A stretch of 64,000 nt of DNA from Escherichia phage AV123, in sequence record OR352953.1; one strand, given 5' to 3'. A program made the translations under genes and the position numbers. Each line of letters opens with the position of its first letter. Within the stretch, counting starts at the first letter, position 1. The notes beneath the pieces were generated by a model, which ran no database searches, was not told where the DNA came from, and saw only the letters and a program-made list of their open reading frames with translations. Positions 55,659 through 58,357 of this stretch are shown piece by piece.

Positions 55659-56552
55659 ATGAAAGTTAGTATTCTACATGGTGTTGACTGTTATGTTACT
55701 GATGTAGACGTTAAAGTCTTTACATTCTCTGGTGGAGAACAACATGTTCAACTAGACACGAATCTATCAGGTTTCAATCATGCTACAGACAGAATCTTAC
55801 TCTCTTTAGAAGTAAGATCTGCTAAAGACTTGATGACTTTGGTTATGACTAAGAATGCATTGGACAATATGCTATATCATAAACCATATTGTGTTGATTT
55901 GCTCATGTTGTATGTGCCATATGCACGACAAGACAGAGTGTGTGAACCTGGGGAAGCATTCGGAGTTAAAGCATTTGCTTCTATAATTAATTCATTAAAT
56001 TTCTCACGTGTTATCGTTGCTGATCCACATAGTGATGTTACTCCAGCGGTGTTTGACAGACTCTGTGTAATACCTCAAGAAGAGATTGCTTACGAAACTT
56101 TAAAGTGGAAGTTACGTATGGAGAATTTTGCTCTTGTTAGTCCTGATGGTGGTGCTCTTAAGAAAATATTTAAATTATCTAAGAAAATGTCTTTAGATGT
56201 GTTCTGTGCAGAGAAGGTTAGAGATACTGCAACAGGTGCTATTGTTCGTACAGACATTTCTGTACAGGATTTCAATAAGCGTAACCTGATGATCGTAGAT
56301 GATATCTGTGACGGCGGTAGAACTTTTATTGAATTGGCTAAAGTGCTACGTGCTCGTAACGCAGGTAAGATTGAGTTATATGTTACACACGGTATCTTTT
56401 CTAAAGGTCTTAAAGAGTTAAGTGAGCACTTTGACTGCATTCATTCTCTTAATGTGTGGGAAGATAACATCCAAGAAGATTCCGGTGTTCTTGTTAAGAA
56501 TCAGTCAGATTTGCAACAACAAATTGTATCTCCATACGTGTGGAATTTTTAA
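55659..56552 (+). CDS. ribose-phosphate pyrophosphokinase (Prs) homologue; candidate ADPR pyrophosphokinase Adps of NARP1
   Basis: YVPYARQDRV (Prs signature), LVSPDGGALKK, LMIVDDICDGGRTF (PRPP-binding loop), YVTHGIFS; AAGGAG RBS. Confidence 0.75.
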   Translation: MKVSILHGVDCYVTDVDVKVFTFSGGEQHVQLDTNLSGFNHATDRILLSLEVRSAKDLMTLVMTKNALDNMLYHKPYCVDLLMLYVPYARQDRVCEPGEAFGVKAFASIINSLNFSRVIVADPHSDVTPAVFDRLCVIPQEEIAYETLKWKLRMENFALVSPDGGALKKIFKLSKKMSLDVFCAEKVRDTATGAIVRTDISVQDFNKRNLMIVDDICDGGRTFIELAKVLRARNAGKIELYVTHGIFSKGLKELSEHFDCIHSLNVWEDNIQEDSGVLVKNQSDLQQQIVSPYVWNF

Positions 56553-56623
56553 ATAATAAGTGTTGACAATAGGGAGTATGCTTAGTAAGATACTCCCACA
56601 CTAACAAACAAGGAGACATAACT

Positions 56624-58357
56624 ATGAATATTTTTGCACCTTTTGCTACTGATTGGTATAAACCTGGTCACAAGCAGATGTACAACCAAAATACAAAACT
56701 CATTTTCTCTAATTTAACTCCTCGTAATGATAAAAACTTTGCACACTATGCAGATCGTGAAGCACGTGGTGTAATTGTTTTAGGTATTCGTCGAGCAGTT
56801 ACTGATGCTCTTGTAACTATGTGGGACAGCTTCTTTAAAATGTCTCGTAGTGCAGCAGTAAATAAATTTTATCGTATGTCTAAAAATGCATTAGGTGCTT
56901 CTGCTCCTTCTGCTGAATGTTGGGGAGAATTGCACGATTTAGGTTATCTTCCGCTGGAAGTTCGATCTCTGCCAGAAGGTGTTTTGTGTCCTATTGGTGT
57001 TCCTGTGTTTACTGTGCATAACACTTTAGAAAAATTCTTTTGGTTAACTAACTATGTGGAAACACTATTGTCAGATGAAACTTGGAAGACAATGACTAAC
57101 GCCACAGCAGCTTTTCAGTATAAGCGTATCGCTATGGCATATGCGATGGCAACGTGTGATAATATTGATCACGTTAATTTCCAGTGTCATGACTTTAGCC
57201 TACGTGGTTTAAGCAATATCGAAGATGGTTATAAGAGTGGTATCGCTCATTTGGCATCTTTCACAGGTACAGATAATATTCTGGCTATTGAAACTGTGCA
57301 TGATTATTATGGTATTGATTATGATCAGTTTGTTGCAGGTTCTATTCCGGCAACAGAACATTCAGTAGCAACGACTAACATTGGAGCTATTGTTGAAGAT
57401 CTAAAGGAACATTTTCCACGTCTTAAAGCTGATGTAGATTGGCTTCGTTATGTAGCAGAAAAAGAGTTTCTTCGTCGTTATATTGAAGAAATTGTTCCAG
57501 AAGGTTTTTGTTCATATGTAGCAGATTCTTATGATTACTGGACTGTATTGACTAACATTCTGGTAGAGTTGAAAGATTCCATTATGTCACGAAATGGTCG
57601 TCTTGTTATTCGTCCAGATTCGGGAGATCCGGTTAAAGTTGTTGCAGGATACAATATTGAATCTTTTGATAACTATGAAGACCTTTTAAATAATGGTATT
57701 GCTACAGCCACTGAAGTAGTTCATTTGGCTGATGTTAATAAGTATTACAATGTTCTTCAGGATTGCAGTGTTGCTGATTGTATTGATGAAACTTATGAGA
57801 TTCCTTATTGTGAAGCAGTAGGTTCTATTCAAATCCTTTGGGAAGTGTTTGGTGGTACTATCAACCGAAAAGGCTACAAGGTTCTTGATCATCACATCGG
57901 TATGATTTATGGTGATTCTATTACTGTTGAACGAGAACACGAGATCTTACGCCGACTGAAGAAGAAAGGTTTTGCAGCTTCCAATATTGTATTTGGTGTT
58001 GGTAGTTATACTTATCAGTTCAATACACGAGATACTTTTGGTTTTGCTGTTAAAGCAACAGGTAGTATCATCGGTGAACACGAGATTTTGGTAAGTAAGG
58101 AGCCTAAAACTGATCCTGGTAAACGCTCTGCAAAAGGTTTTATTAAGGTTGTTAAGGATACAAATGGTAAACTTTCTCTTGTGGATAATCTTTCTTTTAA
58201 AGATATCCAAGATGAAGACAATGAGTTAAAAGTTATCTTCAGGGATGGTACGGTTATTACACCACAAGTAGAAGGACGTGATGAAACATTTACAGATATC
58301 CGTAACCGTGTTGATGTAGAGGTTCTTCGTACTATGGGAACCATCCAGGTTGACTAA
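56624..58357 (+). CDS. nicotinamide phosphoribosyltransferase-family protein (NAMPT/NadV-like); candidate Namat of NARP1
   Basis: TDWYKPGHKQMY, LPEGVLCPIGVPVFTVHNT, FFWLTNYVETLL, HDFSLRG, FTGTDN, IPATEHS, RPDSGDP all match NAMPT-family motifs. Confidence 0.8.
   Translation: MNIFAPFATDWYKPGHKQMYNQNTKLIFSNLTPRNDKNFAHYADREARGVIVLGIRRAVTDALVTMWDSFFKMSRSAAVNKFYRMSKNALGASAPSAECWGELHDLGYLPLEVRSLPEGVLCPIGVPVFTVHNTLEKFFWLTNYVETLLSDETWKTMTNATAAFQYKRIAMAYAMATCDNIDHVNFQCHDFSLRGLSNIEDGYKSGIAHLASFTGTDNILAIETVHDYYGIDYDQFVAGSIPATEHSVATTNIGAIVEDLKEHFPRLKADVDWLRYVAEKEFLRRYIEEIVPEGFCSYVADSYDYWTVLTNILVELKDSIMSRNGRLVIRPDSGDPVKVVAGYNIESFDNYEDLLNNGIATATEVVHLADVNKYYNVLQDCSVADCIDETYEIPYCEAVGSIQILWEVFGGTINRKGYKVLDHHIGMIYGDSITVEREHEILRRLKKKGFAASNIVFGVGSYTYQFNTRDTFGFAVKATGSIIGEHEILVSKEPKTDPGKRSAKGFIKVVKDTNGKLSLVDNLSFKDIQDEDNELKVIFRDGTVITPQVEGRDETFTDIRNRVDVEVLRTMGTIQVD

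Follow-up and report, generated by a model that had tools for sequence, protein, structure and literature searches.

Adjacent Prs-like and NAMPT-like genes of a phi92-like Escherichia phage very probably encode the NARP1 pathway of NAD+ reconstitution

When a phage carries a Prs-like gene directly upstream of a NAMPT-like gene, does the pair encode a classical NAD+ salvage route or the NARP1 pathway? The question is raised by a stretch of 64,000 nucleotides from Escherichia phage AV123 (sequence record OR352953.1), hereafter the window, for which a first-pass annotation had favoured NARP1 over the classical pair. NARP1 is an important recent discovery, as it lets viruses rebuild a metabolite destroyed by immunity via two previously unknown reactions. 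In the proposed scheme, host defence systems (SIR2-HerA, Thoeris, DSR1/2, SEFIR) would cleave NAD+ into ADP-ribose and nicotinamide. Adps, a diverged relative of PRPP synthetases, would then carry out an ATP-dependent transfer of pyrophosphate onto ADP-ribose, and Namat, a diverged relative of NAMPT, would replace this pyrophosphate with nicotinamide to yield NAD+ directly; no NMN adenylyltransferase (NMNAT) would be required in this route.

Judging from their sequences, the two genes very probably encode Adps and Namat, as the first-pass annotation proposed. This identity is supported because identical proteins stand in the published NARP1 tables, the first protein falls within the Adps clade, the second bears the Namat selectivity helix and no NMNAT was found in the window or in the scanned and annotated parts of a proxy genome. 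Synthesis and use of ADPR-PP, and the protection against host defence that the pair would confer, are extrapolated from characterised homologues, those of Bas63 in vivo and of SPbetaL1 in vitro.

A catalogued gene pair in the phi92-like lineage

The window belongs to a phi92-like Escherichia phage (Justusliebigvirus) and covers 64 kb of a genome of ~146 kb. The closest deposited phages reach ~98.7% identity with it across 25-kb stretches. Phage EmilieFrey (Bas61) is ~94-99% identical per aligned block over the whole window, and its DNA is 100% identical over a 3.3-kb segment containing the gene pair. The two genes were placed by the first-pass annotation at 55659-58357, in exact agreement with the ORF list (297 and 577 aa), and the Prs peptides that it quoted do occur in the first protein (YVPYARQDRV at residue 85, VDDICDGGRTF at residue 213). 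Both genes are adjacent and co-oriented on the plus strand at the site of a strand switch, separated by a gap of 71 nt and each preceded by its own strong AAGGAG ribosome-binding site (Table 1).

Proteins identical to both products have already been catalogued as NARP1 components (Osterman et al., bioRxiv 10.1101/2024.02.11.579819). MZ501063_00238, identical in sequence to the window Adps, is found in the Adps/Prs table of this discovery paper with the entry "Namat within 10 genes = Yes", while MZ501063_00239, identical to the window Namat, is found in the Namat table as "Adps-associated". The proximity rule of the discovery paper, Adps and Namat within 10 genes of each other, also holds in the window, where the genes are adjacent. 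The NARP1 operon was reported to recur in 4 BASEL phages (Osterman et al., bioRxiv 10.1101/2024.02.11.579819), and our literature search found no paper naming both "Bas61" and "NARP1". The window pair is thus a copy of an already known pathway, and the locus adds nothing new to NARP1 itself. Its practical value lies in annotation. Database records of at least 55 phi92-like genomes contain the pair, and most of them read "ribose-phosphate pyrophosphokinase" and "nicotinamide/nicotinate phosphoribosyltransferase"; such Pfam-derived names were concluded to misdescribe the actual reactions of the characterised homologues (Osterman et al., bioRxiv 10.1101/2024.02.11.579819).

Table 1. Features of the Adps-Namat locus (positions in the window)
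Feature	Position	Strand	Basis
Sigma-70-like promoter candidate, TTGACT-17 nt-TAGAGT, upstream of Adps	55591..55619	+	Consensus scan, 9/12 matches; AT-rich stretch 5' of it
Adps ribosome-binding site AAGGAG	55646..55651	+	Read from sequence
Putative Adps gene (ADP-ribose pyrophosphate synthetase, Prs-like), 297 aa, ATG	55659..56552	+	ORF list, profiles, tree; DNA 100% identical to bas61_0254
Adps Lys186 codon, aligned with SPbetaL1 Adps K162	56214..56216	+	Alignment
Sigma-70-like motif TTGACA-N17-TAAGAT, intergenic (71-nt gap), immediately 5' of Namat	56563..56591	+	10/12 matches; putative function
Namat ribosome-binding site AAGGAG	56610..56615	+	Read from sequence
Putative Namat gene (nicotinamide ADP-ribose transferase, NAMPT-like), 577 aa, ATG	56624..58357	+	ORF list, profiles, structure match; DNA 100% identical to bas61_0255
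Namat His246 codon, catalytic histidine in PATEHS	57359..57361	+	Column conserved in 5/5 aligned Namat/Nampt sequences
Namat selectivity-clamp helix GSYTYQFNTRD codons, residues 460-470	58001..58033	+	Fit to published Namat signature

The Prs-like protein and the classical salvage route

The homology of the two proteins to Prs and NAMPT, as claimed at first pass, is borne out by Pfam, NCBIfam and PHROG scores far beyond chance. For Adps these are Pribosyltran (1.5e-07) and Pribosyl_synth (1.7e-06) in Pfam, and PHROG 619 (5.3e-91). Cellular Prs and NadV/NAMPT indeed share with the window pair their folds, their superfamilies and the residues of pyrophosphoryl and phosphoribosyl transfer. Taken at face value, the Pfam and NCBIfam names, together with the annotation of the majority of deposited records, point to classical salvage, whereby a true PRPP synthetase and a true Nampt would produce NMN, to be converted to NAD+ by the NadR/NadD of the host. 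This reading could also draw on the broad NCBIfam subfamily model TIGR01251 (ribP_PPkin), whose cutoff Adps barely exceeds (118.8 bits against 113). However, this is the sole Prs model that Adps passes, and the scores of the curated equivalog and subfamily models are missed widely (PRK01259, 99.6 against 297; PRK00934, 98 against 296; others lower). Identity to E. coli Prs is 25%, and the solved Prs structures match at ~58 bits.

Phylogenetic placement, the check suggested by the first-pass annotation, argues against classical salvage. In a neighbour-joining tree (276 columns, 19 Adps-type and 7 Prs sequences), 200 of 200 bootstraps separated the phage Adps homologues, together with the window Adps, from all 7 cellular Prs, a sample taken from E. 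coli and Actinobacteria that includes neither archaeal nor class II enzymes. Within the Adps clade, the window protein shares a subclade with the Adps of Escherichia phage Bas63 (96% support), and the Adps of Bacillus phage SPbetaL1 belongs to the sister part, so that both characterised enzymes bracket the window protein; its identity to each is 32%. By alignment, Lys186 corresponds to the catalytic K162 of SPbetaL1 Adps, the K162A mutant of which is impaired in NAD+ production in vitro. The Adps clade was described as almost exclusive to phages, with a Namat homologue encoded in close proximity to 97% of its members.

The biochemistry of the homologues bears on classical salvage from both sides. 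In vitro, SPbetaL1 Adps converts ADPR and ATP to ADPR-PP, and SPbetaL1 Namat joins ADPR-PP to nicotinamide to give NAD+. SPbetaL1 Adps yielded no product "with PRPP and ATP" according to the text of the paper, or with ribose-5-phosphate and ATP according to the legend of its Figure 2D, which speaks against a true PRPP synthetase. On the other hand, SPbetaL1 Namat also makes NMN from PRPP in vitro, and some PRPP chemistry may therefore persist in the window Namat. In Bas63, counter-defence is retained when both pncC and nadR are deleted from the host (Osterman et al., bioRxiv 10.1101/2024.02.11.579819) and is hence independent of these genes. Considering also the Namat selectivity helix, which Nampts lack (see below), we regard classical salvage as quite improbable.

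The NAMPT-like protein and the search for an NMNAT

Namat is matched by NAPRTase in Pfam (3.8e-38), by PRK09198 in NCBIfam (461.8 bits; cutoff, 405) and by PHROG 448 (1.9e-187). Its best match among solved structures is 9w5x/9w5w at 398 bits, compared to 167 bits for human and rodent NAMPT, and the aligned residues and numbering of 9w5x agree with the SPbetaL1 Namat product and the Namat structure paper. Sequence identity of the window protein amounts to 44% with Bas63 Namat and 45% with SPbetaL1 Namat, but to 29-31% with the PRPP-type Nampts of Vibrio phage K566 and Citrobacter phage CfP1. The tblastn bit scores likewise fall into two groups, with listed Namats from Adps-bearing lineages at 308 or above and T4-like or KVP40-like Nampts at 220 or below. 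PDB 9ke8 was also tried as a phage Nampt comparator and dropped, since nothing in the phage collection came close to it (58.9% at most).

We compared with SPbetaL1 Namat the core residues comprising the nicotinamide and ribose-phosphate contacts, the catalytic histidine and Arg306, mutation of which abolishes the activity of the SPbetaL1 enzyme. All of them (D10, Y12, F191, S192, R194, D217, A243, H246, R330, D332, G430 and D431 in the window protein) are the SPbetaL1 residues, SPbetaL1 F189, R192, D215, H245, R306 and D308 being kept among them. This nicotinamide-binding catalytic core and the NAMPT/NAPRTase superfamily are also common to the Nampt of NARP2 (Nampt plus a bifunctional Nmnat, Vibrio phage KVP40 type), and the distinction lies in the selectivity helix. 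Crystal structures of SPbetaL1 Namat (NAR 2026, PMC12774641) bear the same helix signature as the window protein. The published signature reads GS-X-Phi1-X-Phi2-X-Phi3-TRD, its third and seventh positions being aromatic; the window sequence GSYTYQFNTRD fits it, Tyr462 and Phe466 occupying the positions that stack on adenine, and GSYTYQYMTRD of Bas63 Namat is of the same type. Both PRPP-type phage Nampts compared have GGGLLQ..RD in place of this helix, with Gly and Gln/Glu at the stacking positions (n=2).

The clamp loop is less easily judged from sequence. Lys37 of the window protein aligns with the adenine-stacking Arg40 of SPbetaL1 Namat in a loop 6 residues longer, and a Lys is found in Bas63 Namat as well as in both PRPP-type Nampts; the structure paper calls this loop variable (NAR 2026, PMC12774641). 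The window Namat also carries two insertions relative to the crystallised enzyme (residues 258-281 and ~344-399). SPbetaL1 Namat, with 491 aa, has neither, whereas Bas63 Namat is long like that of the window (593 versus 577 aa) and is extended by insertions at both of these sites.

Since the window represents only 64 kb of the genome, a NARP2-type system could be envisaged, in which the second protein would be a PRPP-using Nampt partnered by a phage bifunctional Nmnat encoded elsewhere, the more so as ~20% of phage Namat/Nampt homologues occur in phages without Adps. The first-pass annotation had seen no NMNAT in the window, and a Pfam scan of its 39 ORFs of at least 130 aa agrees, revealing no CTP_transf_like, NMNAT or NUDIX domain. 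For the rest of the genome we relied on a proxy ~98% identical to the window. The same scan, again with the size limit of 130 aa, gave no hit for NMNAT or NUDIX across 35-84 kb of this proxy, and no NMNAT is annotated anywhere in its record, the structural gene block being judged by annotation only; the rest-of-genome check proposed at first pass thus turned out in favour of NARP1. Nor is an Nmnat annotated near the Nampt genes of K566 or CfP1. Given this search, the 29-31% identity to NARP2-type Nampts, the absence of their GGGLLQ helix, the Adps gene directly upstream and the published label "Adps-associated", the NARP2-type reading is close to refuted.

Counter-defence, accessory genes and promoters

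Among characterised loci, the window pair most invites comparison with that of Bas63 (JohannRWettstein; bas63_0079, bas63_0080), with which it shares the Adps-Namat order on the same strand, a short gap and an E. coli host, although the gap is 45 nt in Bas63 and 71 nt, with a promoter-like motif, in the window. In SPbetaL1 the two genes overlap. A common genus for Bas63 and the window phage was considered and dropped: Bas63 is a Felixounavirus rather than a Justusliebigvirus, and the proteins are only 32-44% identical. The role of the Bas63 pair is backed by deletion and metabolomics. Deletion of the Bas63 pair sensitises the phage to SIR2-HerA (Osterman et al., bioRxiv 10.1101/2024.02.11.579819), and ADPR-PP was seen by metabolomics only when an NAD+-depleting defence was present. 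NAD+-depleting defences were overcome during infection by Bas63, FADO and knock-in phages.

These observations also bear on whether the pair might be made of auxiliary metabolic genes that mainly boost nucleotide and NAD+ supply for replication rather than serve dedicated counter-defence. The region is rich in nucleotide genes (ribonucleotide reductases, thymidylate synthase, thymidine kinase), and the phage encodes a SIR2-family protein that may itself consume NAD+. Yet the appearance of Bas63 ADPR-PP solely under NAD+-depleting defence, the deletion phenotype on a defence strain and the nearly phage-restricted, Namat-linked distribution of the Adps clade all point to counter-defence, and a mainly metabolic role seems very unlikely to us.

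Extended versions of NARP1 share the Adps and Namat core with the window, namely NARP1-AP (Adps, the Macro-domain phosphatase Adpp and Namat; Vibrio phage Gary type) and the RyDEP-extended form of phage DyoEdafos, whose locus contains an RyR-domain glycosidase gene. Unlike these, the window pair has no Macro-domain gene within or beside it (Pfam on flanking ORFs; the NARP1-AP criterion being within two genes), and no RyR-domain match was obtained in the flanking or other window ORFs (Pfam). A homologous Macro protein (homologue of bas61_0068) is nevertheless encoded ~80 kb from the pair in the proxy genome, within a TelA / TerF-like vWA / TerC / Macro / PRTase_3 / HAD cluster. This candidate Adpp could turn ADPR-1''-phosphate into ADPR, and NARP1 of phi92-like phages might then belong to a NAD+/ADP-ribose toolkit dispersed over the genome and be fed by an unlinked Macro gene outside the window. 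We consider this rather doubtful; the link of the Macro gene to NARP1 is not specific because its family, present in ~2,700 phage records, includes T4-like phages in which no NARP1 pair was found. If true, it would constitute an unlinked, "split" NARP1-AP resisting aRES-type defences, and genes of this kind would have been missed by the published NARP1-AP survey, which covered two genes around each operon. The unlinked Adpp-like Macro gene of the phi92-like lineage is a minor new point.

The first-pass annotation had put both genes under one promoter. A candidate does lie upstream of Adps, in keeping with this proposal, but a second sigma-70-like motif in the gap before Namat speaks against its being the only one. 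From its sequence, Namat probably has its own promoter besides upstream read-through. The promoter-like motif preceding Namat (TTGACA-N17-TAAGAT), likewise a minor new point, belongs to a motif family represented 5 times in the window (0.04 expected), a count reached in 0 of 100 shuffles.

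The Prs-like and NAMPT-like genes and their relatives

Both ORFs lie exactly where the first-pass annotation had placed them, and the peptides that it cited were found in the predicted proteins. They adjoin a strand switch, where the sign of the GC skew also flips: all upstream genes, as far as 55237, are minus-strand, and from the pair onward the genes are plus-strand. The Prs-like protein (Adps) matched the Pfam phosphoribosyltransferase and Prs-associated domains, PHROG 619 'ribose-phosphate pyrophosphokinase' (5.3e-91) and the broad NCBIfam model TIGR01251 (118.8 bits, cutoff 113), and fell well under the cutoff of each specific Prs model (e.g., 99.6 versus 297 in NCBIfam). 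The NAMPT-like protein (Namat) matched Pfam NAPRTase (3.8e-38), NCBIfam PRK09198 (461.8 bits, cutoff 405) and PHROG 448 'nicotinamide phosphoribosyl transferase' (1.9e-187).

Features of the pair, its surroundings and related loci
Feature	Position (nt)	Strand	Basis
Adps ORF, Prs-like, 297 aa	55659-56552	+	ORF list
Namat ORF, NAMPT-like, 577 aa	56624-58357	+	ORF list
Namat insertion 1 vs crystallised SPbetaL1 Namat, residues 258-281	~57395-57466	+	alignment
Namat insertion 2 vs crystallised SPbetaL1 Namat, residues ~344-399	~57653-57820	+	alignment
73-aa ORF immediately 3' of Namat gene	58429-58650	+	hypothetical protein in EmilieFrey
TTGACT-N17-TAGAGT, weak sigma-70-like candidate	before Adps gene	+	consensus match
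TTGACA-N17-TAAGAT, stronger sigma-70-like candidate, in 71-nt gap between NARP1 genes	56563-56591	+	10/12 consensus; motif scan
TTGAC[A/T]-N17-TAAGAT	1627-1655	+	motif scan
TTGAC[A/T]-N17-TAAGAT	5505-5533	+	motif scan
TTGAC[A/T]-N17-TAAGAT	35424-35452	-	motif scan
TTGAC[A/T]-N17-TAAGAT	58350-58378	+	motif scan
18-nt-spacer variant of motif	58812-58841	+	motif scan
15 tRNA genes, incl. 2 tRNA-Met(cat), 2 tRNA-Leu, 2 tRNA-Ser	59145-62200	+
RNA-repair cassette candidate, just upstream of pair, opposite strand	50862-53644	-
Small protein of this cassette	53270-53644	-	cREC_REC domain
SIR2-family protein	20151-20963	-	Pfam SIR2 5.7e-21; EmilieFrey 'sirtuin family protein'
NADAR-domain protein, beyond window	L008:33084-33635 = EmilieFrey bas61_0107	+	domain match 9.9e-35
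Macro, ComF-like PRTase_3, HAD hydrolase, beyond window	L008:12875-15090 = EmilieFrey record 56875-59090	-

The segment 55400-58700 is 100% identical to phage EmilieFrey (Bas61; MZ501063, locus tags bas61, Justusliebigvirus), in which the equivalent genes carry the annotations 'putative phosphoribosylpyrophosphate synthetase' (bas61_0254) and 'nicotinamide phosphoribosyltransferase' (bas61_0255), and 98-99% identical to ~54 further phi92-like records. The best deposited-phage matches to the window reach 98 to ~98.7% over 25-kb stretches. Since the NARP1 segment is 100% identical to EmilieFrey while the whole window shows only ~94-99% identity per aligned block, the comparison suggests a mosaic, or a phi92-like phage distinct from the compared records. 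The window crosses the EmilieFrey record end (junction 63325/63326), positions 63326-64000 corresponding to record 1-675 with the spanin genes. Several records named 'Campylobacter phage' (e.g., MG065639, A150) share ~97% identity with these phi92-like phages of E. coli, which looks like a host mislabel or contaminant.

NARP1 is already known, and the exact window proteins are already in published tables. According to Osterman et al. (bioRxiv 10.1101/2024.02.11.579819), what drew attention to the operon was that it 'recurred in four phages' within the BASEL collection; their experimental material was Bas63 (JohannRWettstein) and the enzymes of Bacillus phage SPbetaL1. In the supplementary tables of that study, MZ501063_00238 is the exact 297-aa window sequence ('Namat within 10 genes = Yes') and the entry MZ501063_00239 starts with the 577-aa window sequence ('Adps-associated'); the adjoining rows are PaulScherrer, JohannJBalmer and JohannRWettstein, presumably the remaining three BASEL phages with the operon. 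Our literature search found no paper naming both 'Bas61' and 'NARP1'. The phi92-like NARP1 is already catalogued, its function here being predicted.

Placement and specificity residues of Adps and Namat

Window Adps shares 32% identity with both Bas63 Adps and SPbetaL1 Adps, and 25% with E. coli Prs. Because Bas63 is a Felixounavirus, a lineage other than that of the window phage, near-identity is no usable argument for this protein, and solved Prs structures matched it with just ~58 bits, bacterial and archaeal enzymes about equally. The phylogenetic placement proposed as a check by the first-pass annotation was made with a bootstrapped neighbour-joining tree of 276 alignment columns, in which the window protein was compared with 17 phage Adps homologues, seven cellular Prs and an Adps-like protein of bacterial origin flagged as Namat-linked. 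An Adps-type clade that includes the window protein and leaves all Prs of this narrow sample outside was recovered in 200/200 bootstraps. Window Adps and Bas63 Adps share one subclade (96% support), with SPbetaL1 Adps in the remainder of the clade; the two characterised enzymes therefore bracket the window protein. Its Lys186 aligns with SPbetaL1 K162, a conserved lysine, and K162A impaired the SPbetaL1 enzyme (Osterman et al.).

For window Namat, the top solved-structure match was 9w5x/9w5w (398 bits; NAMPT of human and rodents scored 167 bits), whose aligned residues, with their numbering, agree with the product of the SPbetaL1 Namat gene and with the structure paper's residue numbers. Identity of the window protein to the Namats of SPbetaL1 and Bas63 is 45% and 44%, respectively, and only 29-31% to the Nampts of K566 (KVP40-like Vibrio phage) and CfP1 (T4-like). 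Bit scores against it in the phage collection are bimodal, with Felix O1-like, ICP1, DyoEdafos and Staphylococcus K-like Namats at 308 or above and T4-like and KVP40-like Nampts at 220 or below. In a 2026 structural study (PMC12774641), Namat is defined by an adenine 'selectivity clamp' on top of a catalytic core of the Nampt type; the clamp-helix consensus is GS-X-Phi-X-Phi-X-Phi-TRD, with aromatics at motif positions 3 and 7. All catalytic-core residues are present in window Namat, including the catalytic His246 and Arg330 (SPbetaL1 R306), and its clamp helix reads GSYTYQFNTRD, whereas the PRPP-type Nampts of K566 and CfP1 have GGGLLQQSDRD and GGGLLQEVTRD. The clamp loop, 6 residues longer than in SPbetaL1, is less clear-cut: Lys37 stands opposite SPbetaL1 Arg40, and in this alignment Lys is found in Bas63 Namat but equally in the PRPP-type Nampts of K566 and CfP1. 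The second of two insertions relative to SPbetaL1 Namat comes after the RPDSGDP ribose-binding strand, and in Bas63 Namat (593 aa), which is active in vivo, both sites likewise carry insertions, the second longer than in window Namat.

Probable NAD+ rebuilding, its alternatives and accessory genes

Taken together, our comparisons support the earlier NARP1 interpretation, and the window genes very probably encode this pathway. A NADase of the host defence would cleave NAD+ and release ADP-ribose, which Adps, by homology, would pyrophosphorylate with ATP; Namat, again by homology, would swap the pyrophosphate for nicotinamide to yield NAD+, with NMN bypassed. The SPbetaL1 enzymes carried out both reactions in vitro, Bas63 without the pair plated ~20-fold lower on SIR2-HerA hosts, and NAD+ depletion was milder with wild-type Bas63 (Osterman et al.). 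NARP1 overcomes Thoeris, DSR1, DSR2, SIR2-HerA and SEFIR, a published range with which the defences listed in the first-pass annotation (Thoeris, DSR, SIR2-HerA, SEFIR) agree. Classical NMN salvage through host enzymes appears very improbable for the pair; the counter-defence effect of Bas63 persisted in a host without pncC and nadR, and SPbetaL1 Namat given PRPP and ADPR-PP together formed NAD+ as sole product (10.1101/2024.02.11.579819). A general metabolic-support role is, if anything, slightly less probable still; with Bas63, ADPR-PP was seen only when defence and genes were both present (10.1101/2024.02.11.579819).

NARP2 would pair Nampt with an NMNAT (Nmnat). ORFs were called in the window and in EmilieFrey, the latter as a proxy for the genome part beyond it, and those of at least 130 aa without confident annotation were joined into pseudo-proteins of 1,000 aa at most for a Pfam scan. 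The joined sequences still yielded weak domains of 20-28 bits, so the scan was sensitive enough. Domains identified in the 39 window ORFs were SIR2, Metallophos, Resolvase, PhoH, lysozyme, thymidine kinase, RdgC, AAA_33 and a MazG-like PRA-PH domain; cytidylyltransferase, NMNAT and NUDIX domains were found neither among them, as the first-pass annotation had noted for NMNAT, nor in ORFs of that size in EmilieFrey 35-84 kb, and the EmilieFrey record holds no NMNAT annotation anywhere. This outcome fits the label 'Adps-associated' in the published table and speaks against NARP2, whose probability we consider negligible.

Known extensions of NARP1 are NARP1-AP, with an in-operon Macro-domain ADPR-1''-phosphate phosphatase (Adpp), and an extension by RyDEP, an RyR-domain glycosidase converting cyclic ADPR signals to ADPR. 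No Macro or RyR domains were found in the small ORFs flanking the pair on either side, and judged by its sequence the window pair is the plain two-gene form.

The lineage holds further NAD+/ADP-ribose-related genes (SIR2-family, NADAR and Macro). The SIR2-family protein is a potential NAD+ consumer in a phage also coding for NAD+ rebuilding. The NADAR gene is probably already explained by DarTG1 counter-defence work, because the Bas60 homologue was cloned in that study, which reported DNA ADP-ribosylglycohydrolase activity for both non-T4 NADAR types tested (PMC11257639). The Macro protein belongs in EmilieFrey to a TelA / TerF-like vWA / TerC / Macro / PRTase_3 / HAD cluster, and its Macro domain shares 40% identity (E = 4e-36) with the Macro 'phosphatase' of Vibrio phage Athena, the gene of which is placed between Adps and Namat. 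As the aRES paper confined its search to a distance of two genes from each NARP1 operon, unlinked Macro copies went uncounted. The family is widespread (~2,700 phage records) and is also present, as gene tk.4, in T4-like phages in which no NARP1 pair was found, so its link with NARP1 is unspecific; a 'split NARP1-AP', in which an unlinked Macro gene would serve NARP1, is rather unlikely.

Expression signals and neighbouring genes

A ribosome-binding site AAGGAG stands 7-8 nt ahead of the ATG in both genes. The first-pass annotation had put them under one promoter, and a weak candidate does precede the Adps gene; a stronger consensus match lies in the gap, and the scan showed no terminator-like site on the plus strand, either between the two genes or downstream of them. 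Read-through from the putative upstream promoter plus an additional putative Namat promoter is the likeliest arrangement, so the single promoter was only partly right. The gap motif belongs to a recurring TTGAC[A/T]-N17-TAAGAT, present in 5 copies in the window versus 0.04 expected (0/100 shuffles reach 5), which most likely represents a putative phage promoter class, probably for host sigma-70 RNA polymerase. The 73-aa ORF, which has a TTGACT-N17-TAAGAT motif of its own, encodes two CxxC pairs with a weak RecR zinc-finger-like match (0.0039).

The minus-strand cluster just upstream, a probable RNA-repair cassette from its predicted products, encodes a kinase-like AAA_33 protein with a polynucleotide kinase annotation and two proteins annotated as RNA ligase and phosphoesterase, and its small protein carries a cREC_REC 'cyclic-phosphate processing receiver' domain (3.9e-13). 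Downstream, the NARP1 pair is followed by three small ORFs and then immediately by the tRNA cluster.
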